From an uncultured Clostridia bacterium (GTDB taxonomy: Bacteria; Bacillota; Clostridia; TANB77; CAG-508): DNA of 64,000 nucleotides. The DNA is taken from the NCBI GenBank assembly GCA_934130085.1, contig CAKOXK010000003.1, positions 3,070-67,069 of the forward strand, written 5' to 3'. The notes beneath the pieces are model-generated. The model did not search any database and had not been told where the DNA came from. It saw only the letters and a program-made list of their open reading frames with translations. The position numbers and the translations under genes were made by a program. Shown here piece by piece: positions 6,064-48,815 of the stretch; position 1 is the first letter of the stretch, and each line of letters begins with the position of its first letter.

Positions 6064-6357
6064 ATGACTAGTAAACAACGTGCTTATTTAAGAGGCTTGG
6101 CACACCATATTGATCCTATTTTTCAAATTGGGAAAGGTGGAATTTCTGATAATTTGATTAATCAACTTTCTGATGCTTTAGAGGCTAGAGAGCTTATTAA
6201 AATTTCTGTTCTTGATAATGCTCCTGATGTTGCAAAATCATTTGGCTCTTGCGTTGCTGAAGCTACTCATTCTGAATTAGTTCAAGTTATTGGAAATAAG
6301 ATTACTCTTTATAGACCACGCAAAAAAGATTCAAAAATTGTTTTACCTAATGTTTAG
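6064..6357 (+). CDS. yhbY: YhbY-like CRM-domain RNA-binding protein (ribosome assembly)
   Basis: 97 aa. LTSKQRAYLRGLAHHIDPIFQIGKGGI and ELIKISVL match the YhbY family pattern. Confidence 0.85.
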   Translation: MTSKQRAYLRGLAHHIDPIFQIGKGGISDNLINQLSDALEARELIKISVLDNAPDVAKSFGSCVAEATHSELVQVIGNKITLYRPRKKDSKIVLPNV

Positions 6358-6401
6358 TCAAAATTTTCATTAGGTAAAACATAAGTAAATAGGAGCTTTT
6401 C

Positions 6402-7424
6402 ATGAATTATTTATCTAGAAAATCAAATATCGAATTATTGCGTTTGTTTTGCATTTTTGGCATTCTTGTAATGCATATCCTTGGCAGATCTATGAGCAAT
6501 TTATCTTTTGCAAATAGAGAGATTGATTTATTGTTTAATAGTTTTTTTAATTGCGGAGTTACAATCTTTGTATTGATTTCTGGCTATTTTGGTATACATT
6601 TTAGTTGGAAAAAGATATTTAAGTTGCATACTATGGTTCTTGTTTATTCCATTATTTATACATTAGTTTCCATTCTTCCTACAGGTTTGGCTATTCAAGA
6701 TGTTTTTATTACCGTCTTTCCTATTTTATCTAATAGGTTTTGGTTTATGACATCTTACTTTATTTTGAGCTTTTTATCCCCATATATAAATAAGTTTATT
6801 AATATGGTTAACAAAAAGGAATGCTTATCTTTAACACTTACTTTACTGTTTTTCTTTTCAATTATACCTACTGTAACTAATCTTGATTTTACATTTGATA
6901 ATGGCAAAGGAATTGTTAATATGATTTTAATTTACATTATTGGCAGATGTATTAAACTAGGCTATATCCACCTTTCTAAAAAGCAGAGTGTTATTTTGGG
7001 ACTTGCCTCAATTTTAATTACCTTTGTTTTAATGAGTTTTATATCATATTTTCAAGATAGGGTTGTTCTAGGTTACTTTTTTAATGATTACAGTATTTTG
7101 GTTATTGTTTCTTCTGTTTGTATTTTTAATATTTTCAGAAGTTTCGATATTACAAGTCCCTTCATTAATAAACTTTCTAAGCATGTTCTTGCTGTATATA
7201 TTCTTGAATGGCCTGTCATGGATTTACTTAATAAATTTATTAATTTGAATGATTTTGGGCAGAGCCCTTGTTTCTTCTTGGCATTCTTTGCTTATGCTTT
7301 CTTGGTTTTTGCAGGTTGCATTTTGGTAGACAAGGTAAGAGTTTTGCTATTCGATAAGTTAGAAGATAAGGTTATTGATAAAATAATTGCAGCCTTGAAG
7401 CTTCAAAATAACGCAAAAATATAA
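6402..7424 (+). CDS. acyltransferase family 3 integral membrane protein
   Basis: 340 aa and multi-span hydrophobic. N-terminal NIELLRLFCIFGILVMH is typical of acyltransferase_3 proteins. Confidence 0.7.
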   Translation: MNYLSRKSNIELLRLFCIFGILVMHILGRSMSNLSFANREIDLLFNSFFNCGVTIFVLISGYFGIHFSWKKIFKLHTMVLVYSIIYTLVSILPTGLAIQDVFITVFPILSNRFWFMTSYFILSFLSPYINKFINMVNKKECLSLTLTLLFFFSIIPTVTNLDFTFDNGKGIVNMILIYIIGRCIKLGYIHLSKKQSVILGLASILITFVLMSFISYFQDRVVLGYFFNDYSILVIVSSVCIFNIFRSFDITSPFINKLSKHVLAVYILEWPVMDLLNKFINLNDFGQSPCFFLAFFAYAFLVFAGCILVDKVRVLLFDKLEDKVIDKIIAALKLQNNAKI

Positions 7425-30657: not shown

Positions 30658-32930
30658 TTATTCATTTTTATATTCTTCGCTATCTCCCGCAACAATTAAT
30701 TGATTTTCTTCATTGTCCTCATCTTTTTTATACTCAATCTCTTTTTTAATAAATAGTGATTTATTTGTAATACTAAAGAATTTATCGAAAAAGTCTAATA
30801 ATTTATCTATTACAACATTCTTTTTCTTTAGTCTAGATCTGTCTTTTGCAAACATATCCATTGGTGGCAATACAGATGATATTCCTGTTCCATCTGTTTC
30901 TATACTTCCTTTATCAAAAGATTTCTTAATAAATTTGTATGTTTCTTCTGAATTCAGATTCTCCTCCTTAATTATTTTGTCTAATTCTTCTCTCTTTCTA
31001 CTATTCATAAAAATCTCAAAATCAGTATATACATCTTAACTCACATTTAGTGAATCTATAAATTCTAGAATTAAATCTTTTTTATTTCTTAAGTCTGGAC
31101 TTGACATGATTGCTTTGTTAATTGTTACTAGCACCTCTTTATCTTGCATATTGCTATCATGATATTTTTTTACTAAAGCTAAAATATAATCTATATTTAC
31201 TTCTATTTGCTTTATAAGGTCCATTTCAAAAACTATATCTTCTATTATATCTGTTGAATCCACCTTTGATTTTTTTCTAAAATCATCATAAATATCTTGA
31301 TATACACTATGGTAATCTTGAGTATCTCGTTCATTTAGCAATTGTTCATCTTTAAATTGATCAAATGAATTTAAAATATTAGTTACTTTTAAAATTCCAC
31401 CATACAGTTTTATAAATTCCTTTTGTTTTTGTTCTCCAATAATTGGTTGCCCTATTGGCAATTTTTCTTTTAATTCTTCAACAAGTTCTTTATAACCTTT
31501 AAAATCCTTTCCTTTGTAATCTTCATAACCATAATAATAATCTTTATATGGCTTTAATAAAGCTATTCCTGAAGCATTACTATCTCCAAATAAAGCTAAT
31601 GCATCATTTAATTCTTTTTCTAAATTTCTAAATGAAACAATGTTACCGTAAGTTTTAACAGAATTTAATATTCTGTTTGTTCTTGAAAATGCTTGTATCA
31701 GTCCATGATATTTCAAATTTTTGTCCACCCATAGTGTATTAAGTGTTACAGCATCAAAACCAGTTAAAAACTTATTTGCAACTATTAAAATATCAATTTC
31801 TTTGTTCTTCATTCTTAGTGAAACATCTTTATAATAATTCTGAAATTTTTCTCCTGTTGTGTCATAACTTGTTCCAAACATTTTATTGTAATCTTTGATT
31901 GCTAACTCAAGAAAATCTCTATCACTCTTATTTAGCCCTTCTGTAGTTTCAGAATTTTCATCGTAAACTCCATCTACAACTTCATCATTTGCTCCATAGC
32001 TATAAATAAGAGCAATTTTCAAGTTATGGCTTTTATTATTTTTAAATTCACTATAATATTTTTTAGCCATATTTATATTAGCCACAGCAAAAATTGAATT
32101 AAGTCCTTTTATATTTGATTTACTCTTTATTTGTTTAGCATCTCTATTTTTAGCTACTTCCACAACATTTTCTAATGTATTATATACATATGACTCATCA
32201 TTTTTAGTTTTAGAAAAAAATGTTCAATTATATATTTTGTAATTGCTGATATTCTTGTTTTGTTATCATAAGCTTTTTCAATATCAATTTTATATACTTT
32301 TTCATCCTTTACATCTTCTTTAATATCAACCCTACCAATATATTCATATCTAAATGGTAATACATTTTTATCACTTATAGCATTTGCTATTGTGTATGTA
32401 TGAAGTCTTTCTCCAAATAATTGACCTGTAGTTTGCATTATTCCTTTTTTTGTTTTGGCATTCCCTGTAAATATGGGAGTTCCTGTGAATCCAAATATTA
32501 TCCATTTTTTAAATTTGGGGGTTATATTTTTGTGCATATCTCCCAACTGACTTCTATGGCATTCATCAAATATAAAAACTATTTTTTTGTTATATGCTTT
32601 TGAGTGGTTATTTTTCTTTATAAAACTATCTAACTTTTGAATTGTTGTAATAATTATTTTAGATTTGCTATCTTCTAGTTGTCCTTCTAATATTTTAGTA
32701 TTAACATTTGAATTAGCACATCCTTTTTTGAATCTATCATATTCTTTCATTGTTTGATAATCCAAATCTTTTCTATCTACTACAAATATAACCTTATCTA
32801 TATATTCAAGCTTACTTGCTATTTGAGCTGTTTTAAAAGAAGTCAATGTTTTTCCTGATCCAGTTGTATGCCATATATAGTCACCAGCTTCAATTGTTCC
32901 ATTTATTATTTGTATTAATTTTATTCATAT
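30658..32930 (-). pseudogene. hsdR: type I restriction enzyme R subunit (hsdR), 5'-truncated and split into three frames
   Basis: Fragments carry GSGKT (upstream of ORF 32172..32846, with no start codon), DECH (FIFDECHRSQ), GFTGTP, and QAFSRTNR (motif VI, in 31036..32163). A typical HsdR C-terminal tail lies in 30658..31008. The nuclease domain is missing, and no hsdM or hsdS is in the window. Confidence 0.8.
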
Positions 32931-32949: not shown

Positions 32950-35172
32950 TTACTTTAATAAGCAACATTGCTTATATTTCTTGCCACTACCACATGGGCA
33001 CAATTCATTTCTTCCTATTTTTTTGCTTTCTAACTTTATTCCTCGTTTACATCTCAAAGCTTCTGCTAAATTTAAAATTTCTGTTGTTCTTGCACCATAA
33101 TCAAGTGGAGATAAAATCCTTAAAAAGACCTTAACAATTTCATCTTTTTTATCATAATATAAAAATACAACTAAAACCTTATTGTTTTTAGCAAGATACA
33201 TATTTGCATATGCATCTTTAAATAAAACATCTTTATCTATATCTTGTTCGTCATAAATAGATGATATACATACACCATCTATGTCATTTTCATCCTTTTT
33301 AGTTAACGTCATATATCCATATTTAGGTCTTCTGTTATTTTTGTAAAATTCTTTTGATTGTAAAATTATTTTTTCTATTTGATTTTGTGTGTCAAAATTT
33401 AGGTTTAATAAAAATGTAGTTAAATATGTATGGTTTTCAAGTTCTATATTTTCTTCACAAAATTCTATAACTTTTTTTATTTCTTTTGGAGTTTTCCTAA
33501 ATGGTTTACTTACTTTTGACTTCTTAAACCATAAACTATTATAATAAGTATCTAACTCTTCCATCCAATCTTCTCCACTAATAGCTACTATTCCTAATTC
33601 TCCCATTATGTCATTTTCTTCTTCAAAGTCTTTTATTCTCTTATTTATATACTCATTATAAAAGTTATATTCAATCCACATTCCTAAATGATATAATTCG
33701 TCTACTAAGTCAATATTTTTATTACCAATAGCCTTTTTTCTTTGTAATAAATATTGTATAAAATAACAAGGATGCTGTCTGAAATATTCACTATATACTC
33801 TTAAATCATCTAAACAAAAAACAAGTGTATTTTCGCTTAATGATAATATTTTCACTTTATCTATTCTTGCTTCAATATCATTAAATGCCTCTGCTGTTAT
33901 TATAATTTTAAATATCTTTGTGTCGTCGTTTATTTTTATTTCAGCTTTTTTATTTCTTGTTTTTTTATTATTACTATCAAATATAGTAACACTCTTCTTA
34001 TCAATTAAGCATTTTTCAAGAGAGTCTTGTTGCTGATTCGCTTTTACTATTAAATTGTTTAATGTTTCTTTATGTGAATCCAAATCACTACTTGCTAATT
34101 CCGGAGTAAAATTTCCGGCTTTTACTTCAATAATGAAAACATTATTATCATATATTAGAAGAATATCATTTTCTATAATTTTTTGACTATATTCATAATA
34201 ATTTCCAATATAACTCTGTTTAGTATTAAATATATTTTTGAAATAATTTAATACTACTTGTTCCACATTAGAAGTATATCTTGCTCTAATTTCTTCTCTT
34301 TTATTTTTTAACTTTTGGCACATTCCTAGTATTGCTATTCTGTCAAAATTATCATAAAATTGTTGTTCCAATAGTATATAGTAATTATCATCAATTTTTA
34401 TTAATGGTCTATACTTTATTTTATTTATTAATCTATCCCAATTTTCTATACTTATATTATCCCAAAACTCTTTATATTCTTCTTTATCAACAATAAATTG
34501 CTCTATAAAAAAAGTAGTCCATTTAGTATTTTCCTGAATATTTGCCAATTCCAAACTAAATATATTATTTGAATATTCTTCTATTTTTTCTTTCTTTACT
34601 ATACTTCTTAACTCGTTTGCACTATTTTCAAATTTAAAATAAAAATTCTTCTTTAATTCTAATATTCCATTATACAAATCATTTAATGAGAAATTATATG
34701 TATCTAAAAATTCTTCTTTTAAACACTCTAACAAGTCCTTATGATGCTGCACTTCAAAAACATCATACCTTTTACCACTCCAGTCTTTAAAAGAATCTGA
34801 ATGCATTATATAATCTGCCTCATCTTTTGTTAATTTTTTAGAAAATCTTTGTACTAATTTATATCTATAAGTGCATATTTGTAACTCATCTAATATTTTT
34901 TCAATTTTATCAAAATCTTTTTGTTGTATTTTTTTTGACCTAAAATCACTCTCATTTATACAAGAAAACAATATCTGCAAATGCAATATTTTTTTACTTT
35001 TTAACCATCGTTCATCTCTATTTACATCTTCTCCATAGCTACTTTTATATTCAAAATAGAAATATGAAAAAATATCATACATTGAAAATTGCTTAATATA
35101 ATTTATAATCTCATTAATTTTATTTTTAAATTCTACCTGAAGTTCTTCTGCTGTTGAAAATGTATTTTTCAA
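32950..35172 (-). CDS. 740-aa protein with a PD-(D/E)xK (NERD-like) core and a C-terminal SEC-C motif
   Basis: DILLIYDNNVFIIEVKAG gives the D...ExK arrangement. The C-terminus is CPCGSGKKYKQCC. The start is TTG at 35172, after GAAGGTG. Confidence 0.7.
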   Translation of the reverse strand: MKNTFSTAEELQVEFKNKINEIINYIKQFSMYDIFSYFYFEYKSSYGEDVNRDERWLKSKKILHLQILFSCINESDFRSKKIQQKDFDKIEKILDELQICTYRYKLVQRFSKKLTKDEADYIMHSDSFKDWSGKRYDVFEVQHHKDLLECLKEEFLDTYNFSLNDLYNGILELKKNFYFKFENSANELRSIVKKEKIEEYSNNIFSLELANIQENTKWTTFFIEQFIVDKEEYKEFWDNISIENWDRLINKIKYRPLIKIDDNYYILLEQQFYDNFDRIAILGMCQKLKNKREEIRARYTSNVEQVVLNYFKNIFNTKQSYIGNYYEYSQKIIENDILLIYDNNVFIIEVKAGNFTPELASSDLDSHKETLNNLIVKANQQQDSLEKCLIDKKSVTIFDSNNKKTRNKKAEIKINDDTKIFKIIITAEAFNDIEARIDKVKILSLSENTLVFCLDDLRVYSEYFRQHPCYFIQYLLQRKKAIGNKNIDLVDELYHLGMWIEYNFYNEYINKRIKDFEEENDIMGELGIVAISGEDWMEELDTYYNSLWFKKSKVSKPFRKTPKEIKKVIEFCEENIELENHTYLTTFLLNLNFDTQNQIEKIILQSKEFYKNNRRPKYGYMTLTKKDENDIDGVCISSIYDEQDIDKDVLFKDAYANMYLAKNNKVLVVFLYYDKKDEIVKVFLRILSPLDYGARTTEILNLAEALRCKRGIKLESKKIGRNELCPCGSGKKYKQCCLLK

Positions 35173-35960: not shown

Positions 35961-36176
35961 TTATATTCTTCTATTATATAAGTACCATATTAGTATTTCC
36001 TTTTCATCATAGTCTTCTACTTCTATTGCAAATCTTCTCTTAAGACCAACTACATTAACATATCCATTTATTTTCAAATTGTACATACGTTGTTCAAAAT
36101 TTTCGCTACCTGTTTTTCCTATTTTTACTAGCCCTGGAACAATTGTAATCATACAATATATTATTCCCTTAGCCAT
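35961..36176 (-). CDS. short T5orf172 / GIY-YIG-like domain fragment
   Basis: GIIYCMITIVPGLVKIGKTGS...R resembles the N-terminal part of the T5orf172 domain. At 71 aa it is probably truncated. Confidence 0.35.
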   Translation of the reverse strand: MAKGIIYCMITIVPGLVKIGKTGSENFEQRMYNLKINGYVNVVGLKRRFAIEVEDYDEKEILIWYLYNRRI

Positions 36177-36805: not shown

Positions 36806-37627
36806 TTATTTTAAGTTATTTATATCATGTCTTGATGCATATATATCTAATATATCTTTTGCAAATGAATCAAATGCTAATGTTGAATATTCAATATCAA
36901 AACTGTCAGAAATTAAACCATCTGCTTTTAATTCTTGACTATTTTTATATAATTTAGGTACATCTCTGTTAAAATCAACAATTAATAAAGTACATCTCTC
37001 ATATGAATAACTTTCATCAGTTAATTGTCTGTTATTTATTGAATTAAAGAAACTTATATATTTTTCAATATTAGTACTATTGTTTTTAAAAGCTACTATC
37101 TTTTCTTTTACTAAAATGTCATCATATTCATGTGTTGGTATAAGATAAACTTCTCCAAGTACAATATCATTATATCTCTTATGTAAATTTTCTGCTTCAG
37201 CAAACGTTCTCTCAAATAATGTATCTGCATTCTTTGCTAAACTACTCATTTGGCTACGAACATTTATTACAAGAGAATTTTTAGAAAATTCATATCCATA
37301 TGGATCTAATTTATTTTCAAATTTCAAAGGTCCCCAATTAATAATAATTGGTTTCTTATCTAAATTAGTTGGTAGAACACAAACATCTTGATCTTTTTGT
37401 TTTAAAAATCCTGCAAATTTTATCTCTGGTTTTCTCTTATTTAAAGGAGGAAAAATCTTCTCTGGATTTACTCCATTTTTTATCAATTCATACTTTACTG
37501 CATCATGAATTAAATTTATTAATTCAGAAGATCTGATCATTGATTCCTTACCTTTTGTTCCATTTTCTTCTATTGATTTTTCAATCATTTTCTTAAATAA
37601 AACTAATTTTTCATCTATATATTCCAT
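36806..37627 (-). CDS. putative type II restriction endonuclease (assigned by context)
   Basis: Lies on the same strand as, and downstream of, the N6-adenine methyltransferase. No motif is assigned with confidence. Preferred start is ATG 37627, after GGGGGA. Confidence 0.4.
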   Translation of the reverse strand: MEYIDEKLVLFKKMIEKSIEENGTKGKESMIRSSELINLIHDAVKYELIKNGVNPEKIFPPLNKRKPEIKFAGFLKQKDQDVCVLPTNLDKKPIIINWGPLKFENKLDPYGYEFSKNSLVINVRSQMSSLAKNADTLFERTFAEAENLHKRYNDIVLGEVYLIPTHEYDDILVKEKIVAFKNNSTNIEKYISFFNSINNRQLTDESYSYERCTLLIVDFNRDVPKLYKNSQELKADGLISDSFDIEYSTLAFDSFAKDILDIYASRHDINNLK

Positions 37628-37739
37628 AATTCCCCCTAATATCCTATTTTTTGACATTCTATCATAAATATAAAAAAAAATCTATAAATTGTATTAAAAA
37701 TTCCTTTTCTATGTTATAATTTGCCTAGGAGGAATTATT

Positions 37740-38200
37740 ATGAATTTAAAAAAAGACTCTTCTTATTTATTAATAAAAATGAATAGCCCTGAAAATATAA
37801 ATTTCTTAAAATAACATTGTAATATTATAAACAAAAAGGCTATGTTTGGTTTTGTAGATTTGGAAAAAGCAATGTTTCAGCATCAAAAATAAAATCTCAA
37901 GATAATTATATATTTTTAAAAGATTCAAAAAGAAATGATAACAATATTTATATTGCTAAATATGAAACAATTGCATCATCACCTGATAATGAAGTTTTTC
38001 CTAAATATTATGATAATATTTTATTAGAAAAATCTTTATGGTTTAAAATTACACAATTACAAGAATTTAACTATAATTATTTAACAGATAATTTTGTAAC
38101 TAAATCTACAAATGCAAATTTAGAAAAAGTTTTTTGCTCAATGTGCAGTTCATTTTATATAACATGTAAAAACAATTTAAATATAAAAACAGGAAAATAA
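37740..38200 (+). pseudogene. disrupted small gene between the methyltransferase and the endonuclease candidate
   Basis: ATG at 37740 after AGGAGG is followed by a stop after 24 codons. A second frame continues as QKGYVWFCRFGKSNV...LWFKITQLQEF...CSMCSSFYI to 38200. At least one frameshift or stop is present. Confidence 0.45.
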
Positions 38201-38215
38201 ATTTTTCCTGTTTTT
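38186..38215. terminator. bidirectional terminator
   Basis: AAAACAGGAAAA / TTTTCCTGTTTT 12-bp stem with A and T tracts on both sides. Confidence 0.6.
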
Positions 38216-40031
38216 ATATTTTTATATTATATTTTTCAAAAAGCATTTCATCTATTCTCATTTTATTGTCACTATTTAAAATTTCTAATTCTTCTTTATT
38301 AAAATCTGGAATAGAAAACTTCTCAATATATTTTTTTTGATAACAATAATATCCACCTTCTATTGCATAGCTTGTATTGCTAATGTAATATTTCATAATT
38401 GCTGAATTTAAAATTTTACCTAAAATATTTAATGAAATCTTATCATTTTCAAATATAGCATATCCATTACAAAACAATGCATTTTCATTGTCTATGTATT
38501 TAAATTTAGGACTCTTAGCAAAAGTTGGGAAAAGCATCTTTTTACCATATTTGTTTAGACCTTGCGTTCTCCCATACGCATACCACCCATATGGATTTCC
38601 TTTTCCTTTATCTCTTTTATCTAATTCGCTTTTCATTTCCTCAAGATATATATATGCTTTTGGAAATTTTTCTTCTAAATCTTTTTCTTCTATCAATTTG
38701 TATGTTCCATTATCTTTAAAATATGGAAATATAATATATTGCATTGCTTCATTTTCATTTTGACATTTCTTTAATTCTGGAACTTTGTATATTGGCTTAA
38801 CAATATCATCTTCTATTTCAAATCTTATGCCATTTATATTTTTGTAAAATCCAAATTCATCTTTATCAACTAAATACACGCCATCTTTTAATGTAGCTAT
38901 ACCTGTTCTTATGAATTCCTTAATTGGCATTTTTTGTTTTTCTATTTTTCTTATATTGTCAAGTGTATTCTTGTTAACTAATTTCCATCCATTTTTATCT
39001 AATAATTCTATATTCATTGATTCATATTTCATACTACTAAGCATGTTTTCAATATCATCACACTTATCTATAACACAATAATTAAACGTTTCATTACATT
39101 TTTTATTTAATTTGATTATACAATTATATGTTCTAACAGGTTTAAATATCATATTATCTGAAAAGTCTATTATAGATTCTATACTTTTTTCATTTTGTAA
39201 AACCTCTCTTAACGTATTAGCTGATTTTATAGTTAATACATTATTGGGAATAATAAATTCTAAATCTCCTTCATCTTTCAAATATTTTAAACCATTTTCA
39301 ATAAATGCATAAAATATATTAAATACACCTTCTTGCGTTGTTTTAAATTTATCTTTTAAGAACTTTATAGTTTCTTTTTTCATATCATGTGGATTTACAT
39401 ATGGTGGATTACCAATTATATAATCAAATTTTTTTACATCAAAAATAGTATTCCAATTTTCTTTTAAGCTATCTTCACTAACTATATTATATTTTATATC
39501 TTTTTTAAGATCTAGATTATTTATTATACAGTATAATTCAATTGCTAATTGACATCTTCTTGCATTTTCCTCCATAATATCTATTCCATAGATATTATTT
39601 TCAATTATTGTATTTATATCAATATTATATTTTTTATGAATATATTCTATTGCAGATATTAAAAATATGCCACAACCACACCCTGGATCAATAATTTTTA
39701 TATTAGAACTCCAATTTTCAATATCATTTAGACTATCTTGTACAATAAAATCAGATATATATTTAGGAGTAAAAACAATTCCATTTTCATTTTTTTGATC
39801 TTTATCTAATAGATATTCAAAAAACTCTATTATATATTCTATATCTATTGGAAAATTATCATCTAATAAAGTTTTATATATTTCTATATTTTCTTTATTA
39901 TCAACATCAACATCTGATTTCACTTGTTCTCTTATATATTCAATTAATCCTTCCTCAATTTCAGTAATTTCTTTATGAGCTATTTTTTTATATAAATTCT
40001 CAAAATATATTAATCGTTTTTCTCTTTCCAT
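38214..40031 (-). CDS. N6-adenine DNA methyltransferase (gamma class, Eco57I-family-like)
   Basis: Motif I IIDPGCGCGIFL and motif IV IIGNPPYV. A long C-terminal region is consistent with a target-recognition domain. Confidence 0.85.
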   Translation of the reverse strand: MEREKRLIYFENLYKKIAHKEITEIEEGLIEYIREQVKSDVDVDNKENIEIYKTLLDDNFPIDIEYIIEFFEYLLDKDQKNENGIVFTPKYISDFIVQDSLNDIENWSSNIKIIDPGCGCGIFLISAIEYIHKKYNIDINTIIENNIYGIDIMEENARRCQLAIELYCIINNLDLKKDIKYNIVSEDSLKENWNTIFDVKKFDYIIGNPPYVNPHDMKKETIKFLKDKFKTTQEGVFNIFYAFIENGLKYLKDEGDLEFIIPNNVLTIKSANTLREVLQNEKSIESIIDFSDNMIFKPVRTYNCIIKLNKKCNETFNYCVIDKCDDIENMLSSMKYESMNIELLDKNGWKLVNKNTLDNIRKIEKQKMPIKEFIRTGIATLKDGVYLVDKDEFGFYKNINGIRFEIEDDIVKPIYKVPELKKCQNENEAMQYIIFPYFKDNGTYKLIEEKDLEEKFPKAYIYLEEMKSELDKRDKGKGNPYGWYAYGRTQGLNKYGKKMLFPTFAKSPKFKYIDNENALFCNGYAIFENDKISLNILGKILNSAIMKYYISNTSYAIEGGYYCYQKKYIEKFSIPDFNKEELEILNSDNKMRIDEMLFEKYNIKI

Positions 40032-40670: not shown

Positions 40671-41419
40671 ATGCTAGAAATTGATTTAGAAGAAGATTTC
40701 ACATTAAATGCTCTTGTCGATTTATTAAATATAGGAAAATCAGCAGTTACTAGCAAAGATTCTTTAAATAACAAAGTACTTGAATTTGTTAATAAATATA
40801 GCACATTAGGTTTAATGAATGATTTATCTATTAATAAATACTTTTTTTAGATGAAAAAGTTATTTTAAAAGACTTTAATTATGTAGGAAATAATGATTTT
40901 ACTACTACTATTAATTGTATTAATTATTTTAAAATATTCTTTCATAAATGTATTGAAAAACAAATTGAAAAATTAATAAAAGACACAAAAAAAATTGCAG
41001 AAACTCCTGCAATTGAAAAATATATTACTGAAGATATAAATAAACATTTAATAGGTTCTCATTGGTATTGTGAGCCTTTAGATATATTTATTAAATATGT
41101 TACATATATGTATAATTTATTAAATGCAATTATAAATAAAGACGATACAGTTGAAACAAAATATAATACTTTTGAAGTTAATAATATAAATATGTTCTTA
41201 ACTCAAAAAGAAAATGTAAATATAGAAACTCCTATTACATCTTTAAAACAATTTGTAGATTTTTATTTTGCTAAAACAGTTTCTCAAGATGTTAATTTAT
41301 TAAAAATTTGTAAGTTCTGCAATAAGGCTTTTATTGCTAATAATCCTAAAGCAGAATATGATACACCCCAATGTAAAAATAAAGCTAATGTATATAAAAG
41401 TAGAGCCAAAAATAAATAG
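40671..41419 (+). pseudogene. frameshifted gene encoding a protein with a C-terminal Cys cluster
   Basis: The frame from ATG 40671 (MLEIDLEEDF...NKYFF) stops at a T7 run near 40843-40849. It continues in another frame to ...CKFCNKAFIANNPKAEYDTPQCKNKANVYKSRAKNK at 41419. Confidence 0.45.
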
Positions 41420-41435
41420 AGAGCTATAGCTCTCT
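41418..41435. terminator. perfect palindrome between convergent genes
   Basis: AGAGAGCTATAGCTCTCT overlaps both stop codons, at 41419 (+) and 41434 (-). Confidence 0.5.
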
Positions 41436-41835
41436 ATTGTTTTGCAAAAGCATCCATTGCTTTTGTGTATAACTCTTTTGAAAAAGGCTCCTTTTCTTCA
41501 GGCTCATAATATATTTCAATCTTTTCATTTGAAACACCTGCTAATCCTATATTAAATTTTTTAAATTCTTTAATATTTTCCAAAGGTGCATCGATATAAT
41601 CATTATCCATAAATACATAAGCTTTTTTTGAAAAAGATCTATATCTATACGCTTGTATTAAAGCTCTTTTCCAATTTTTTAATTTTGCTTCAATACTAAT
41701 AATTTCTTTATTATTTATCATAATATCTGGGATTCCAAATAATCCAATCGGCTCTAAAAGTATTTCATCTTTTTTATATTCGTTCAATAATTCATTTACA
41801 CATGTATCAACCATTTTTTCTTCTGTTCTAAACAT
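41434..41835 (-). CDS. small PD-(D/E)xK (Hjc/restriction-endonuclease-fold-like) protein; third gene of the kinase operon
   Basis: GIPDIMI ... ISIEAKLKNWKRALIQAYRY gives the D-(x)n-ExK arrangement. GGAGGG SD. There is a 12-nt gap to the upstream gene. Confidence 0.55.
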   Translation of the reverse strand: MFRTEEKMVDTCVNELLNEYKKDEILLEPIGLFGIPDIMINNKEIISIEAKLKNWKRALIQAYRYRSFSKKAYVFMDNDYIDAPLENIKEFKKFNIGLAGVSNEKIEIYYEPEEKEPFSKELYTKAMDAFAKQ

Positions 41836-41847
41836 ATTATCCCTCCA

Positions 41848-43032
41848 TTATTTACTTAGTTTATATTTATTGTACATATTAATTGCATTTGTCCAATGTA
41901 TTAAATGATCTCCGTTGCTTCTCTCATCTAACAATACTCCACTATCATTAATCTCTTTGTAATATATCATACTTTCCTTAATTTTTTCAAGTATAAATTG
42001 ATATCTTGCATCATATTCTCCAGGTAATTCTTGTAATAATTTGCTATATTCACAAAAGTAATATTTATAAATTTCTGGCTTTGTAAAGTGCCATTGGAAA
42101 GTTGGTTCAAACAATTTTATTTTATATTCATTATCTTCAAATAATTCATCGTATTTATCATATAAAGTTTCTAATGGTGCTAAATATGTATATTCTACAT
42201 TCTGTAAAAGTTTCGCACTAAATACCCTTGGATTTGGTCCCTGTCTTTTACCAACATTTGATTTAAATTTCTCAATGCTAAAACATCTAGTATTTTCATA
42301 TGCTCCGATAGAAATAGACGTTATATCAGATAAAGATAATATAAATCCTTCTATATCTGTATACCCCAAATGTACTAGCAATTCGTTTTCTCTCAGTTTA
42401 TCTATAAACTTCATTAGTTCAAATAAATATTTTTCATCTCTTACTCTTTTATATGTTTCTACATGTTCAGGAATAATATAAATTCCATCTATTGCCTGAA
42501 AACTTGTAGCAAAGCTTAATATCTCTTCTCTTATTTCTTTATCAAATAAATAATTATCCTTTAAAATTAATGTTAAAAATACTGGTTTATTAACATTTAA
42601 TTTTTCTATGGCACTTACAAAAGGAATTATATATAACTCTTTTTGTATTGCTAAATATTTATCTGTAAAATTTTCTTTATAAACACATGGAATAATTATT
42701 CTATTAAAAGAATTATTTTTTTGAAATTCTACACATTTATAAGCATCATCATATGCTTTTTCTTCATAGTTAACAGTTGAATAATCATTATTCATAAAAG
42801 TATTTGGGAAAAAATTATATGTTTGAAGTTTTTTCTTATCGCTTTTGGGTAAGTAATATTGTGGATCAAAAAAAGAGGATTCTTTTATTTTTAAGTCTAA
42901 TTTTTCTACTTTTTCTTTTTCAAAATCAGATGGAGAAAAAATCAACCCGTCTCCAATTTTATCTTTGCAAAAACTATCTATATTCCAAATAGTATTATGT
43001 CCACATTGATGATAAATTTCGATATTATTCAT
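41848..43032 (-). CDS. 394-aa protein of unknown function; second gene of the kinase operon
   Basis: The AAGGAGG SD is embedded in the kinase 3' end, with a 1-nt gap after the kinase stop. Recurrent strand-end motifs (YHQCGHN, FFDPQYY, RIIIPCVY, GIYIIPEH, HLGYTD, SIGAYEN) hint at an alpha/beta-barrel fold. No family assigned. Confidence 0.6.
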   Translation of the reverse strand: MNNIEIYHQCGHNTIWNIDSFCKDKIGDGLIFSPSDFEKEKVEKLDLKIKESSFFDPQYYLPKSDKKKLQTYNFFPNTFMNNDYSTVNYEEKAYDDAYKCVEFQKNNSFNRIIIPCVYKENFTDKYLAIQKELYIIPFVSAIEKLNVNKPVFLTLILKDNYLFDKEIREEILSFATSFQAIDGIYIIPEHVETYKRVRDEKYLFELMKFIDKLRENELLVHLGYTDIEGFILSLSDITSISIGAYENTRCFSIEKFKSNVGKRQGPNPRVFSAKLLQNVEYTYLAPLETLYDKYDELFEDNEYKIKLFEPTFQWHFTKPEIYKYYFCEYSKLLQELPGEYDARYQFILEKIKESMIYYKEINDSGVLLDERSNGDHLIHWTNAINMYNKYKLSK

Positions 43033-43033
43033 T

Positions 43034-43849
43034 TTATAATTCCTCCTTTAAAAAGTTTTCTAATGCTTCTTTGAAACTTGTGTATTTTCTATAGCGATTA
43101 AATGGTTGTACTTCTAATGTTTTTAAAAAAATATTCACAAACTTTCTACTTTCCTTGGTATTCTTTATATCAATTCTCTTGTTTCCTCCTATAATATTAT
43201 CTTTAATTCCTAATCCGTTTCCCACCCAAGTAGGATCAAATGGATTATGCTTGTAATACAATTCCATTGCTATTATTCCTAAAGAAAAGAAATCACTTCT
43301 AGGACCAATTAGATTTTTCTGATTTAATAATTGTTCTGGTGATGCATATGGAATTGTACATGGACCAATTGGCATAATAGTTTTGGTAAGACTTTCGTCT
43401 AATAAGTTTCTTGCAATTCCTAAATCTATTATGACTGGCTTTCTTGTTATCTTTGAAATAATTATATTGTCTGGCTTTAAATCTCGATGTACAATTTCCT
43501 TTTTCCAAAGTATTTGCATTCCATTTATAATATCTAAAATTAGTTGTGAAATATCTTTTTCACTCTCATAGTCATTCATACAATTGCTTAATGTATTTCC
43601 GTCAATATATTCTTCTAAAATATCGAATTCACCATTCGCTTCGTCATATGAAAAAAAATAATTTTTAGGAAAAAATTCTGATTCAATTGTTTTTAATATA
43701 TTAACTTCTCTAATTATTCTTTTTAATCCATTAGCAGTCTTACATTTACCTTTTTTATAAATCATAATTTTACCATTATGCTCAACCAGATATACACTTT
43801 TTTGTCCACCAGGTTTAAGCTCTTTTATAACATTTAACTCCATTTTCAA
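43034..43849 (-). CDS. Hanks-type (eukaryotic-like) Ser/Thr protein kinase; first gene of the operon
   Basis: Glycine loop PGGQKSVY, catalytic loop HRDLKPDN, DLG (the DFG equivalent) and YASPEQ (the APE equivalent). It is a single kinase domain of 271 aa. The start is TTG 43849 or ATG 43843, after GGAGGG. Confidence 0.85.
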   Translation of the reverse strand: MKMELNVIKELKPGGQKSVYLVEHNGKIMIYKKGKCKTANGLKRIIREVNILKTIESEFFPKNYFFSYDEANGEFDILEEYIDGNTLSNCMNDYESEKDISQLILDIINGMQILWKKEIVHRDLKPDNIIISKITRKPVIIDLGIARNLLDESLTKTIMPIGPCTIPYASPEQLLNQKNLIGPRSDFFSLGIIAMELYYKHNPFDPTWVGNGLGIKDNIIGGNKRIDIKNTKESRKFVNIFLKTLEVQPFNRYRKYTSFKEALENFLKEEL

Positions 43850-43872
43850 ATTAATATCCCTCCATATTTTTC

Positions 43873-43881
43873 ATTATAACA
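43873..43881 (-). promoter_or_regulatory. extended -10 element (TGTTATAAT) for the kinase operon
   Basis: The rc of 43873-43881 reads TGTTATAAT, about 24 nt upstream of the start and before the GGAGGG SD. Confidence 0.4.
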
Positions 43882-44152
43882 TCTTTTACTACAAAATACT
43901 AGGATTGCTTACTTATTATTATTACTTTTATTCGTATTTTTCGACTTTTTTTGACAAAAAGTTTATATTACATTTTATAAAGTATTTTATTGTCCTATAT
44001 ATTTTCTTTTATGAATTTTTGTGTAATCTTTGTAACACTTGAAAAATAAAGAAAAACTACTAGAATTGGCATTAAAATTGTAGTATAATCATGACAATTA
44101 AATATTAACAAACTTCCACCCATAATTATGCTGAAAGGAGATGAAAAAAGCA

Positions 44153-45138
44153 ATGGCTGGAAGTATTGAAAAAAGAGGTGAAAATACTTATAGGTTAGTC
44201 GTTTCAGGTGGTAAAAATCTTGATGGTACTAGATGTAAAAAAACAAAAACTATACATGGTACAAGAAAAGATGCTAAAATAGCTTTAGCAGAATTCATTA
44301 CAGAAGTAAATCGTGGATTAGTTCCAGAAGGAAAGTCAATTACCTTTGAAGAACTCTTTTATATTTGGGATGAAAAATATGCTTCAAAAGAATTAGCACC
44401 AAAAACTTATTCAAGATATATTGGAATATTAAAATCTCGAATTCTTCCATATTTAGGTTCATTTACTTTAGGCAAAATCAAACCAACAGATTTAATGAAC
44501 TTTTATGATATATTAGAAAATGATACCCAGATAAAGAGAATAGCAAAAAATAATGGTCAAAGAACTTTAAAACCATTATCTCCAAAAACAATTCTAGAGC
44601 ACCATAGACTAATAAGCGCCATGTTACAAAATGCAGTATACTGGCAGTTGTTACCTTCTAATCCTGCTAGAAGAGTTAAACCACCAAAGACTAAGAAACC
44701 TAAAATGGAATTTTTGATAAAGATACTAAAACCGAAAGTTCTAATAGAGTTGTTCCAATACCAAATTATATTACAAATGCTCTTCTTGAATATAAAGAAT
44801 AGTATGACGAGCAAAAGACATATGTGGAAATAAATGGATTAATTCTAATAAACTATTTGTACAAGATGACGGAAAACCTATGCATCCAGATACAATTGGA
44901 AAATGGTTTAAGCCTTATATTGAAAAATTAGGACTACCTATAATTAAATTTCACGGTATTAGATAGTCATACAAATGCTACGCTCATGATTGCTAATACT
45001 GTTGATATAGCAACAGTATCTGCAAGACTTGGACATGCAAGTATTAACACTACTATAAAATACTATGTGCACCCACTAGAAAAAAATATGAGAAAAGCAG
45101 CGTATGTATTACAAGACCTATTAATAGGTGACAACTAA
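44153..45138 (+). pseudogene. tyrosine recombinase/integrase, multiply frameshifted
   Basis: The N-terminal SAM-like/arm-binding part is intact (SIEKRGENTYRLVV..., KTYSRYIGILKS). The catalytic part is scattered over three frames with stops (...HGIR*, then ARLGHASINTTIKYYVHP). Confidence 0.8.
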
Positions 45139-45186
45139 TAATCTTCTTTCAATAAAATTACAAAATTGCTTTTTTTAAGTCTTATT

Positions 45187-45270
45187 GTGAAATTTTAGGC
45201 TATTTATAGCTATTTAAAGTAGCTTGTGTCACCAAGCTGTCCCCAAAATAGCCTAAAATCCACTTTCACA
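45187..45270. repeat. large imperfect inverted repeat between the integrase and the right tRNA remnant
   Basis: TGTGAAATTTTAGGCTATT ... AATAGCCTAAAATCCACTTTCACA encloses AGCTTGTGTCACCAAGCT and CTGTCCCCAAA. Confidence 0.5.
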
Positions 45271-45316
45271 AAAAAATAAAGAGTCCACAATCTCTTGCGG
45301 CTCTAAGTTTAAATCT

Positions 45317-45361
45317 TGGTTGCGGGGGTAAGACTCGAACTATCTACCTTCGCTTTATGAG
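45317..45361 (-). other. tRNA(fMet) 3'-half remnant (rightmost, partly degenerate)
   Basis: The rc reads CTCATAAAGCGAAGGTAGATAGTTCGAGTCTTACCCCCGCAACCA. The acceptor end CCCCCGCAACCA is canonical for initiator tRNA. The anticodon stem and T-stem are mutated, and there is no 5' half. Confidence 0.65.
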
Positions 45362-45495
45362 TGTTTTTTGTTCTATCAAATATTTTATAGAATTTATTGT
45401 TTTCTATACTTTCACTCTGAAAAAATTTCATTGTTTAATTTTTGTACTGAAAAGTTCTTTACATTTCTTAATAATTTGTAATTTCAGGTGGCTTT

Positions 45496-46660: not shown

Positions 46661-48815
46661 CTATCTTTCTTGTTCTGGTTCTTTTCCTCTTTTCATAGTA
46701 TCTTTTTTGTTTTTTAAAATATCCTGCTTTTTACTGCTTTTTTCTGTTCCAGCTTCATTCCTACAATTACTGTTTTCAGGCTCGTTTTCTTTGTTTTTTT
46801 TATTTTCTCCTGGGTTTTGATCGTATTCGCTCTTGATTTCGAGCATTGCTTGCACTTGTTTTTCTAGTAATTTTTTTGCTTCTTGTGAGTTCATTGGGTC
46901 TTTTTTATGTTTTTCATAGTATTTTGTTACTGTGCTTGTTAGACATTGTTTTAGTAGTTTTGTTAGTGTTTTGTCATCGTTAAACAGTTTTCTTTTATAG
47001 TTATCCTTTTGATTTTTTGCGCGTTCTATCGTTTTTTTGATTGTGCTTTGAATTTTGTCTTTTTCTACTTGTTTGTTTTCTCTTATTACTGCGTATTTTA
47101 GAATTTCTTCTTTGTTGTTGTTTTCTTCAAATTTTGGGTTGATTTTTAGTTTTTGATTTTCTGGTTGTATATATGCTATGTCTCCTCCACCTATATAAAT
47201 TTTGTATCCTTTGCTTTGGTCAAAGCTGAATATTTTGTTGTTAAGCTGGTTTTCGCAGTCGATATTTTGGTAGATATTTTTGAAGACTTTTTGTTCTAGA
47301 TATTGATCTGTTGCATTATGTCCGCTTATTAGGTTTGATAGTTTTAGTCCTGATAGTGATAAGATTGTTATGTGGTATTTTGTGTCATCTTTTAGGTTTG
47401 GGATTAGTATTTTTTCTAGGTATTGTTTGTTGTATGATTTGGTTCTGTACGAGTATAGCAAGTTTTTTCTTATGTGTTCTAAGTGTGCTTTTTTTATTTC
47501 TTTTAGTTGACTTCGCTCTTCTTGTGTACTTTTGTCTAACTCGTTTTGTTTATTTCTTTTATTTTGTTTTGATTGACTTTGTTCAGTTAGTTCACATGTT
47601 GCTATCTTTTTTGAATTGTCTTGGTACGTTTTTTCTTCCCCAGTTAACATTTTATTTATTATTTTTGCTTCTTCTTCTCCCAATTTGTCAATCTCTATTT
47701 CATTTAATTTTTCTGCACTTGAAAAGGTAGAATTACGCTCTGCTCCATATTTTGTTGGCGTCTCAATTTTGGGGTGATTTATAGGTGTATTCTTTTTCTC
47801 GTTTTCTTTTTTAGTTTCATAATCATTTTTTATTTCTGCTTTTTCTTGTTTTTTTACTTCCTTGATAGATTGTTCCTTTTCTAACTTTTCTTGTTCTTTT
47901 AGTATTTGGTATGTTGCTTCGATTGAGGCGATTATTATTTTTTTCATATCATTTGGTGTGATTTTGAATTGCGATGAGAGTCTTAGTGCATCAAAGAATG
48001 TTTTGTAGCCATTATAGTAACTGATTTCGCCGTTTTTTGCTTTTAGCTTGTCTTGAGTTATTTTTTTATCAATGTGTTCATAGTTTTCTTCTAGCGAGTT
48101 TGCTTGATCAGAGAATTCATAGTTTAGTGTCATTTTTAGTTTGTGTATGTTTTCTTCTTTTTTTAATAGTTCTTTTTGTATTTCGTTTATTTTGTTTTGT
48201 ATTTTTTCTTCATTTTGTTGGTTGTGCTCGATTCCGTCTATTAAGAATACAAACTCGTCTCCGTCCTATTCTGCAAGCTAGTAGTTTTTGTTTTTCGCCC
48301 AAGTCTTTCTCTAGTACTTTTATTATTTTTTCAAGTACTTTTTTCATGCTTTTGCTTCCTTCTTCGAAGCCATATTCTTCATTTAATTCGTTTAATTTAT
48401 CAAAATCTCCTGCTATTAACACATATTCATTTTTAACTTTTTCTTTTGTTGTTTCGTTTTCTGAACTATCATTTATTGTATTAATTTTATCTACCGCGTT
48501 TTCTATATTCTTTTTTTCTGTTTTACTATAGTCTTCTACATTGTGGCTATAGTTTTCTTTATTGTTTCTTTCGTTTTCTCTATACATGTCTATATTATGG
48601 TCGTAGTTTTCTATCTCTGTTTTTGTCTTTTTCTCGCTTAAGTTTTTTCCACTTGTATTTTCTTCTCCAAAGTTGTTTTCATATACTTTTTTTATAACGG
48701 AAATAAAGTATGGCTGAGCAATTATTTTCGTTTTGGTTTCGCTTGTTTCTATGCTCTCGTCATACATGTATTGTTTTATTGAGTTTATGATTTCTTCTTT
48801 GCTTTCTGTTTTCAT
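46661..48815 (-). pseudogene. GGDEF-domain protein gene interrupted by a 1-nt frameshift inside the GGDEF motif
   Basis: ORF 48210..48815 ends ...LLACRIGRRRVCIL. Deleting one base near 48263 gives RIGGDEFVFLIDGIEH, which runs in frame into ORF 46661..48133. Upstream, GDFDKLNELNEEYGFEEG fits the DxDxFKxxND..G pattern. Confidence 0.6.

Follow-up and report, generated by a model that had tools for sequence, protein, structure and literature searches.

A co-conserved gene trio encoding a Hanks-type kinase, a TIM-barrel protein and a PD-(D/E)xK nuclease is a candidate kinase-associated defense system

What function is served by a bare Ser/Thr kinase, a protein of no recognizable family and a small nuclease-like protein that are encoded together in one compact operon? 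The question is raised by a locus in a 64,000-nucleotide stretch of DNA from an uncultured Clostridia bacterium (contig CAKOXK010000003.1, positions 3,070 to 67,069; hereafter the window, numbered from its first letter), in which three minus-strand genes, here called gene 1 (kinase), gene 2 and gene 3, follow each other almost without a gap. An earlier reading made from the sequence alone (the sequence-only reading) had suggested that this trio is a sensor-kinase and effector-nuclease module unlike any named system. The trio is a real, tightly linked, widespread and horizontally mobile unit, and the analysis described here makes it a well-supported candidate for a new kinase-associated defense system containing a new TIM-barrel family.

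The evidence that the three genes form one unit comes from their conservation. Gene 2 patterns (nine sequences) were used to survey GTDB genomes, one per species, and identified 53 loci. In all 53 the kinase gene lies directly upstream of gene 2, often overlapping it by 4 nt, and a gene 3 homolog directly adjoins gene 2 unless the contig ends. The reverse survey, started from the kinase, recovered a coherent family of bare kinases of about 265–285 aa, with the trio present in each of the three loci inspected. The trio, read as a single module by the sequence-only reading, is in this way co-conserved wherever the contig permits, across many phyla and on one archaeal plasmid. Carriers belong to Bacillota, Bacteroidota, Balneolales, Ignavibacteria, Anaerolineaceae, Desulfobacterota, Gamma- and Betaproteobacteria, Verrucomicrobiota, Acidobacteriota and Bdellovibrio, and include one actinobacterial metagenome-assembled genome (MAG); the breadth amounts to about ten bacterial phyla together with Bacillus plasmids and a haloarchaeal (Natribaculum) plasmid. 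The closest relative in the GTDB species set does not exceed 44% identity. Three gene orders occur. In order A, the form of the window, of Bacteroidota and of other groups, the kinase gene, gene 2 and a short gene 3 are co-directional; in order B (Proteobacteria, Verrucomicrobia, Bdellovibrio) the kinase gene and gene 2 are followed by a convergent, long gene 3; and in order C (Bacillus plasmids, the Natribaculum plasmid, the metagenomic locus L063 and the actinobacterial MAG) a long gene 3 precedes the kinase gene and gene 2, the identity of gene 3 in these loci being confirmed by hhalign at 97–99.5%.

Selection on the trio is also visible. Compared with a relative of about 70% identity, dN/dS is 0.13 for the kinase gene, 0.17 for gene 2 and 0.12 for gene 3, values that point to purifying selection on all three genes. 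Decayed copies exist as well: gene 2 is frameshifted or split in three loci (L032, L040, L048; L-numbers denote individual loci) and in a fourth (L052, Vicinamibacterales OY762226, 2775–8040) about 5.3 kb has been inserted into it. The trio is absent from 50,697 phage records and gave a single match among 2.9 million viral contigs, and a blastn search of complete E. coli genomes with the Pseudescherichia copy found no match.

Gene 1 matches Pfam PF00069 over residues 13–252 (E = 8e-29, 101.3 bits against a cutoff of 31.7) and consists of the kinase domain alone, without a sensor or anchoring domain, in agreement with the earlier description of a bare Hanks kinase domain. Across an alignment of 50 trio kinases, the catalytic set G15, Q16, K32, E48, H121-R122-D123, K125, N128, D142-[LF]-G144, P171-E172, D186 and R252 is invariant or at least 98% conserved, and T155 in the activation loop is kept in 50 of 50. 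Because the catalytic set and T155 are preserved in this way, gene 1 is predicted to encode a domain-only Hanks Ser/Thr kinase of the RD type that looks catalytically intact. RD kinases are usually switched through phosphorylation of the activation loop.

Existing defense libraries recognize only this part of the trio. Searches against PADLOC-DB v2.0.0 returned mad6 (1.7e-34), PD-T4-6 (7.5e-32), MkoA and Stk2 (2.6e-16) for the kinase, all at the level of the kinase domain; no model in that release matched gene 2, gene 3 or the accessory phosphatases described below, in either the short or the long architecture, and a full-text literature search found no description of the trio. To the extent of that release and of the literature searched, the sequence-only reading's suggestion that the trio matches no named system holds. 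The kinase matches nevertheless raise the alternative of a PD-T4-6- or MADS-type kinase gene accompanied by two unrelated passenger genes, which the constant company of genes 2 and 3 contradicts and which we hold to be extremely improbable. The methylation-associated defense system, MADS, comprises eight genes, among them one for a methyltransferase. Although mad6 is the best PADLOC match of the trio kinase, only the kinase domain of the 659-position model is matched, the NCBIfam MAD6 score of 70.9 bits falls short of the cutoff of 460, and other mad genes are absent. The window's Type II N6-methyltransferase (38214–40031), an ordinary enzyme of its kind, scores 4e-23 with the mad2 model (PDLC04134), so that single-domain matches to mad2 or mad6 are not evidence of MADS. 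An interpretation of "mad2" neighbors as phosphatases was likewise rejected, since the mad2 model matches N6-methyltransferases and the metallophosphatases linked to the trio do not match it. As for PD-T4-6, its PADLOC models are non-specific, also flagging housekeeping PknB/PASTA kinases in every S. thermophilus genome (PMC11514479), and its stand-alone architecture does not apply here: gene 2 always follows, and gene 3 always accompanies, this kinase family. A practical consequence is that annotation pipelines may label the trio kinase "PD-T4-6" and so hide the three-gene unit, because kinase-domain models (mad6, PD-T4-6) are the only PADLOC matches within it.

Gene 2, which the sequence-only reading could assign to no family, has no match in Pfam, NCBIfam, PADLOC or PHROGs. 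A scan of 26 diverse homologs at Pfam E ≤ 5 gave nothing consistent, and the gene 2 alignment profile compared with all PDB sequences returned noise only. The AlphaFold2 model built from 26 homologs (pLDDT 89, pTM 0.90) comprises eight beta/alpha units followed by a C-terminal helical bundle, and the protein is thus confidently modeled as a TIM (beta/alpha)8 barrel. Foldseek searches of the PDB found generic TIM barrels (best E 3e-4, TM ≤0.54, about 10% identity), the listed matches including pyruvate kinase, the PEP-binding domain of Enzyme I, HpcH aldolase, GH10 xylanases and DHDPS, and most of those listed being TIM barrels at a probability of about 1.0; a search of BFVD gave the same picture of generic TIM barrels. 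Among 173 non-redundant homologs, the universal residues are Q9, S33-P34, D56-P57-Q58-x-Y60, P115, Y185, Y224, N247 and R249, which are placed at the C-terminal ends of the strands and include one acidic residue and no metal-binding site. Such a pocket would suit either a single-Asp catalyst or a phosphate- or sugar-ligand site, two options that the conserved residues do not distinguish. Moreover, S/T86 is conserved in 149 of the 173 sequences and sits in the loop modeled with the lowest confidence, making it a candidate phospho-acceptor by inference. The family is of modest size (1112 clusters at 50% identity among 1.84 billion, 698 of them at E ≤ 1e-10), and the 150 clusters listed have about 380–415 aa, save for shorter fragments, with no longer fused forms among them.

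The fold matches of gene 2 bear on the possibility that the trio is an ordinary signaling or metabolic operon, in which the kinase regulates a TIM-barrel enzyme acting on a sugar or phospho-metabolite and which has no role in conflict. The best matches are indeed metabolic TIM barrels, and some copies of the trio lie among housekeeping genes. The matches are generic, however, and the sequence-only reading's concern that the 394-aa protein might belong to a housekeeping family was not borne out by the Pfam scan or the fold searches. An obligate partnership with an intact nuclease, a patchy spread across phyla and into archaea with such distant relatives in the GTDB set, carriage by integrases and plasmids, and the existence of pseudogenized copies also speak against a metabolic operon, and we consider it very improbable.

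A further group of specific identities was tried for gene 2 and rejected: tRNA-guanine transglycosylase (TGT)/DpdA, TatD/QatD, amidohydrolase/deaminase, GH-A glycosidase and PEP/pyruvate enzymes all lack a profile match and a close structure, and the conserved residues of gene 2 do not fit their catalytic sets. The HxH motif and metal ligands of TatD and the Zn site of TGT are absent from the conserved residues, and two adenosine-deaminase-family entries among the 50 listed PDB matches superpose poorly, with TM of about 0.3 and an rmsd of 17–18 Å. The first of these identities is of interest for another explanation, namely a restriction-modification (R-M)-like system with new chemistry, in which the barrel would modify DNA or a nucleotide, as does the TIM-barrel transglycosylase DpdA, the nuclease would cut DNA according to its modification state (unmodified or modified), and the kinase would regulate one of the two. 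A barrel whose single universal Asp (D56) is accompanied by Gln, Tyr, Asn and Arg, and a nuclease that carries a DNA-binding domain in most lineages, are compatible with it. No other modification gene is conserved nearby, so that self-marking would have to reside inside the trio, and tRNA-guanine transglycosylases appear among the weak BFVD matches of gene 2 (E 0.02–0.03). Yet neither TGT nor DpdA is among the 50 listed PDB matches, a TGT motif is missing together with the Zn site, no precursor-biosynthesis genes are linked, and a protein kinase would not be expected in simple R-M logic. We judge such a system distinctly unlikely.

The earlier assignment of the 133-aa product of gene 3 to the PD-(D/E)xK fold is borne out by both structure and motifs. 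The AlphaFold2 model (pLDDT 96.8) has as its best Foldseek match the uncharacterized protein 3dnx (SPO1766; TM 0.70, E 5e-5), followed by SfsA, AF2093, HincII and HhaI. In 24 diverse homologs G34, D37, E49, K51, W55, Q61 and Y65 are invariant and form the arrangement D...ExK...QxxxY, which we take to be the signature of the RecB/Cas4 type; the D/ExK motif is kept even in the distant forms of L053, L054, L055 and L063. Gene 3 is thus predicted to encode a PD-(D/E)xK nuclease with an intact active site. In most lineages the protein is longer, 220–290 aa, owing to some 70 residues inserted between the D and ExK strands. The insert scores as a Crp-like winged helix-turn-helix (wHTH) in one of three long forms scanned (Variovorax, L035), and the window encodes the short form without it. 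Gene 3 is not a Cas4 (PADLOC Cas4 E 0.0095, 14 bits; it has no conserved cysteine, and the Fe-S cysteines are absent) and at most a distant relative of the NCBIfam sce7726 family (NF033832; 15.7 bits against a cutoff of 70), which 13 of the 24 homologs match weakly and below the cutoff (best E 1.9e-4). A weak match to phrog_22231 is also below threshold, and a profile match to 865-aa PDB chains annotated as "protein kinase domain-containing protein" (8w7a and others; E 0.22 over 52 residues) was judged spurious.

All-against-all clustering of three neighboring genes on each side of the 53 loci found no further gene family common across loci and thus no conserved fourth gene. It did reveal a metallophosphatase of about 255 aa in four loci and one cluster confined to Prevotellaceae/Paludibacteraceae. 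The metallophosphatase adjoins gene 3 in four gammaproteobacterial loci, and in Natribaculum and L063 a metallophosphatase follows gene 2. In L070 (Spirosoma jeollabukense, 6092–6817) a PP2C-type phosphatase gene adjoins the trio kinase gene in divergent orientation and is a second, independent phosphatase recruitment. That two unrelated phosphatase folds have been recruited speaks for reversible protein phosphorylation being central to the module. In four Bacteroidales metagenome contigs (L071–L074, 9756–14804) the trio is followed by conserved, unannotated genes of 549 and 302 aa and by an HSP70/MreB-like gene of 855 aa, a gene set that may be another uncharacterized module.

Phosphatases added in some lineages are also reminiscent of the kinase-kinase-phosphatase module KKP (PMC11341870) and lend some weight to the view that the trio is an addiction or stabilization module akin to a toxin-antitoxin (TA) system, in which a kinase or nuclease toxin is checked by the TIM barrel or a phosphatase and the whole is selected for the upkeep of an island or plasmid. 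An integrase cassette and plasmids carry the trio, TA genes are among its neighbors (a RES/Xre pair in L066, and RES twice among the neighbors of the 53 loci), and solitary copies occur among housekeeping genes. Most copies, however, carry neither a phosphatase nor a small, labile antitoxin-like gene, and a make-up of three enzymes is atypical for TA modules. We regard this explanation as unlikely but deserving serious consideration; TA activity and abortive-infection defense are not mutually exclusive, so that it overlaps with a defensive role for the trio.

The wider genomic contexts include many defense and mobile genes. L057 contains a ResIII helicase, Mrr, IS200, a group II intron reverse transcriptase, a second integrase and a Type I methyltransferase; L064 contains a reverse transcriptase, GmrSD, AAA_15/21, an ADP-ribosylglycohydrolase, HTH-Fic and MT-A70 with MunI; L066 holds other TA genes besides its RES/Xre pair; Abi_alpha and an integrase lie near the trio in L070; and the Bacillus plasmid copy has a recombinase and an integrase nearby. 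Among 150 immediate neighbors (the two nearest on each side in the 53 loci), strong PADLOC matches were obtained to Type IIG R-M, dCTPase, DRT, BrxH, DrmD/DrmMI, MzaA, AbiEii, HmaA and PDC-S05, and integrases, transposases, RES, RhuM and Psu are further neighbors of these loci. The defense-island context of the trio is frequent but not universal.

Taken together, these data are best accounted for if the trio is a phosphorylation-gated conflict system, directed against phages or plasmids and equipped with a nuclease effector, a proposal that draws on analogy with known systems and that we see as evenly poised between true and false. Co-conservation, purifying selection, intact active sites, phosphatase recruitment, mobility, defense context, decayed copies and near-absence from phages count in its favor. 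In such a system the kinase would be the switch, operated through its invariant activation-loop Thr155, and the TIM barrel its obligate partner, acting either as a sensor of a ligand or of infection that licenses the kinase or as an enzyme that the kinase turns on, with S/T86 in its flexible loop as the candidate phosphorylation site. The PD-(D/E)xK nuclease would be a DNA-directed effector leading to restriction or abortive infection, the long form binding DNA through its wHTH, and the phosphatase, where present, would reset the switch and limit self-damage. Several points weigh against this proposal. The casting of the proteins as sensor, switch and effector relies on analogy; no mechanism for discriminating self from non-self is evident, because no methyltransferase is conserved with the trio; and gene 2 may bind a ligand instead of catalyzing a reaction, since its universal residues include one acidic residue and no metal site. 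Furthermore, defense or mobile genes are found in about half of the inspected contexts, by raw tally, and the copies in L067, L069 and L071–L074 lie among housekeeping genes without a defense neighbor.

One of these copies is an insertion into a housekeeping locus. In L069 (Flavobacterium pectinovorum CP130042, 7001–9426) the trio is found inside a cluster of suf-type Fe-S assembly genes: an Aminotran_5/SufE stretch and a beta-lactamase-family gene precede it, and SufBD-family genes follow immediately. This cluster also holds a PDDEXK_3 gene and a 23S_rRNA_IVP gene.

A more specific form of the conflict-system proposal, to which we give only tentative credence, is that the trio represents an undescribed immune system of bacteria and archaea in which a new family of TIM-barrel enzymes stands under direct control of a Hanks kinase, with a Cas4-like nuclease, in many cases fused to a wHTH, as executor and repeatedly recruited phosphatases as off-switches. 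Once phosphorylated, the barrel would synthesize, degrade or sense a small molecule, or else act on nucleic acid by modifying it.

By analogy, the trio would work most like kinase-gated immune modules such as Stk2, PD-T4-6, PglW, KKP and CapK/CapS-VapC, and it is a member of none of them. Staphylococcal Stk2 and PD-T4-6 of E. coli are kinase defense systems whose PADLOC models the window kinase matches at the level of its kinase domain; these are, however, single-gene systems whose kinases have extra domains, in contrast to the bare 271-aa trio kinase, which is always accompanied by genes 2 and 3 in the loci inspected. BREX type 2 was rejected as an identity for the trio (NCBIfam BREX_PglW 21.9 bits against a cutoff of 990; BREX partner genes are not recurrent among the trio neighbors), and BREX is not known to include a TIM barrel. 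PglW, a defense protein of Type 2 BREX/Pgl, nevertheless resembles the trio in that a Ser/Thr/Tyr kinase is paired with an endonuclease domain (PMC12839542), although in PglW both are parts of a single multidomain protein of 1400–1600 aa that works with PglX, PglY and PglZ.

The TerY-P triad includes a vWA protein and a PP2C phosphatase. With KKP of Pf prophages, whose two kinases and one phosphatase control lysogeny (PMC11341870), and with CapK-CapS-VapC (PMC13373217), it appears to share a common logic with the trio, in that an immune or toxic output is placed under a kinase, which may be paired with a phosphatase. The output of CapK/CapS-like loci is a nuclease toxin (PMC13373217), but CapK is a kinase of the anti-sigma-factor type with a STAS substrate, and none of the three systems is known to have a TIM-barrel or PD-(D/E)xK partner. 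For gene 3, the RecB/Cas4-like nucleases, sce7726 and 3dnx have the same fold and D...ExK...QxxxY arrangement, the last two being themselves uncharacterized; the wHTH between the D and ExK strands of the long form is not seen in the nearest structural and profile matches. For gene 2, the DpdA transglycosylase, the TatD-like nuclease QatD (PMC13434339) and the RADAR deaminase provide examples of a TIM-barrel fold within a defense operon, but gene 2 has no PADLOC match to any of them, and none of the three appears among its 50 listed PDB matches.

In the window itself, the layout of the operon (Table 1) is as the sequence-only reading had described it: the three reading frames with their 1-nt and 12-nt spacers, the Shine-Dalgarno (SD) sites AAGGAGG and GGAGGG at the junctions, and the quoted motifs PGGQKSVY, HRDLKPDN, DLG, SPE, GIPDIMI and IEAKLKNW are all found in the sequence. 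The most likely start of the kinase gene is TTG at 43849, 8 nt after GGAGGG (43858–43863), and a length of 271 aa is also given by gene callers on related contigs. Its stop codon TAA (43034–43036) is separated from the ATG of gene 2 by one nucleotide (43033), and the SD sequence of gene 2 (43042–43048) falls within the final kinase codons, an arrangement that predicts translational coupling of gene 2 to the kinase gene. The 12-nt spacer between genes 2 and 3 (41836–41847) holds the SD sequence GGAGGG (41841–41846). The palindrome reported downstream is perfect over 18 bp and lies within a terminator-like hairpin, the sole such site scored in the region, which overlaps the stop of a convergent open reading frame (41108–41419). 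Upstream, the extended −10 box that had been read as a promoter is present only as a match to the consensus; its −35 is poor, such hexamers are frequent in AT-rich DNA, and 39 promoter-like matches were observed in the region against 24 expected.

Table 1 Features of the trio locus and its surroundings in the window.
Feature	Position	Strand	Basis
Gene 1, kinase, 271 aa	43034–43849	minus	open reading frame
Gene 2, 394 aa	41848–43032	minus	open reading frame
Gene 3, 133 aa	41434–41835	minus	open reading frame
TGnTATAAT extended −10-like box, letters TGTTATAAT, 5' of the kinase gene	43873–43881	minus	consensus match only
Intrinsic-terminator-like hairpin and T-run, enclosing the palindrome 41418–41435	41415–41438	minus	
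Tyrosine integrase pseudogene, divergent from the kinase gene	44141–45138	plus	Pfam PF14659, PF14657, PF00589 fragments
4-kb cassette, integrase and trio	41411–45350	.	blastn of L057 and L060
Type II R-M pair, context, outside the cassette	36806–40031	minus	PADLOC; Pfam Eco57I, TaqI_C

The mobility of the trio is most apparent from the integrase gene next to it. When L057 and L060 were compared with the window by blastn, 94–99% identity extended exactly over the cassette and nothing was collinear outside it, and strains with a 99%-identical gene 2 have entirely different flanks. Because the integrase and the trio are the only segment common to strains with different flanks, the 4-kb cassette is the unit that moves or recombines. 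The integrase of the window is a remnant that comprises N-terminal SAM-like and arm-binding domains and a C-terminal fragment, with about 190 bp deleted internally according to blastn; an intact 396-aa ortholog is found at the same position in L057–L062, the missing part corresponding to L057 8131–8321. This loss of about 190 bp has probably left the cassette immobilized in the present strain. A search for att-like repeats at the cassette ends found only an imperfect 23-nt direct repeat (87%) at 41295–41317 and 45463–45485, some 100 nt beyond either end; chance is its probable origin in AT-rich DNA, though it may be an old att remnant. The sequence-only reading had placed the trio in a tRNA-flanked island. 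This description does not hold, as ARAGORN found no tRNA or tmRNA gene in the 64-kb window and no Rfam family reached its gathering score; the island marker is instead the integrase pseudogene.

The R-M module noted beside the trio is real. It consists of a restriction endonuclease (36806–37657; PADLOC REase_II 1e-111) and a methyltransferase (38214–40031; MTase_II 3.9e-186), and a Type II R-M pair does not adjoin the trio in L057. Further along, an hsdR-like Type I subunit is split into two adjacent open reading frames of 375 and 224 aa (31036–32846) that correspond to successive segments of one PADLOC REase_I model (3e-120 and 1e-84). The subunit gene is thus probably a pseudogene, which suggests that the R-M island is decaying. 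A 71-aa open reading frame (35961–36176) matches the first 68 of the 229 positions of the PADLOC candidate model PDC-S57 (1.7e-34) and is a truncated remnant of a candidate defense gene. The interval from the Type I remnants to the Type II pair also holds a gene for a 740-aa protein (32950–35172), which has a clear C-terminal SEC-C motif and matches NERD weakly (E 0.0033; 18.4 bits, below the cutoff of 22.1). On the other side of the cassette, AT skew is extreme (−0.5) around two very Lys/Glu-rich open reading frames (490 and 201 aa; 46661–48815), of which the 490-aa frame has no Pfam match.

Two of the three proteins of the trio thus come from families that are unannotated in Pfam, NCBIfam, PADLOC and PHROGs, yet they are kept as a unit with the kinase in lineages as far apart as Clostridia and Proteobacteria, and Actinobacteria and a haloarchaeal plasmid carry distant versions. 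Should the trio prove to be a defense system, prokaryotic immunity would gain a compact architecture of 2.4 kb under kinase control and a new TIM-barrel activity, and the trio would offer a tractable model for the gating of a nuclease by eukaryotic-like Ser/Thr phosphorylation. Direct control of a new barrel enzyme by the kinase, if true, would mean both a new enzymatic activity and a new signaling logic in prokaryotic immunity. Even if its role is not defensive, the trio would still be an unexplained and widely transferred module of three enzymes.

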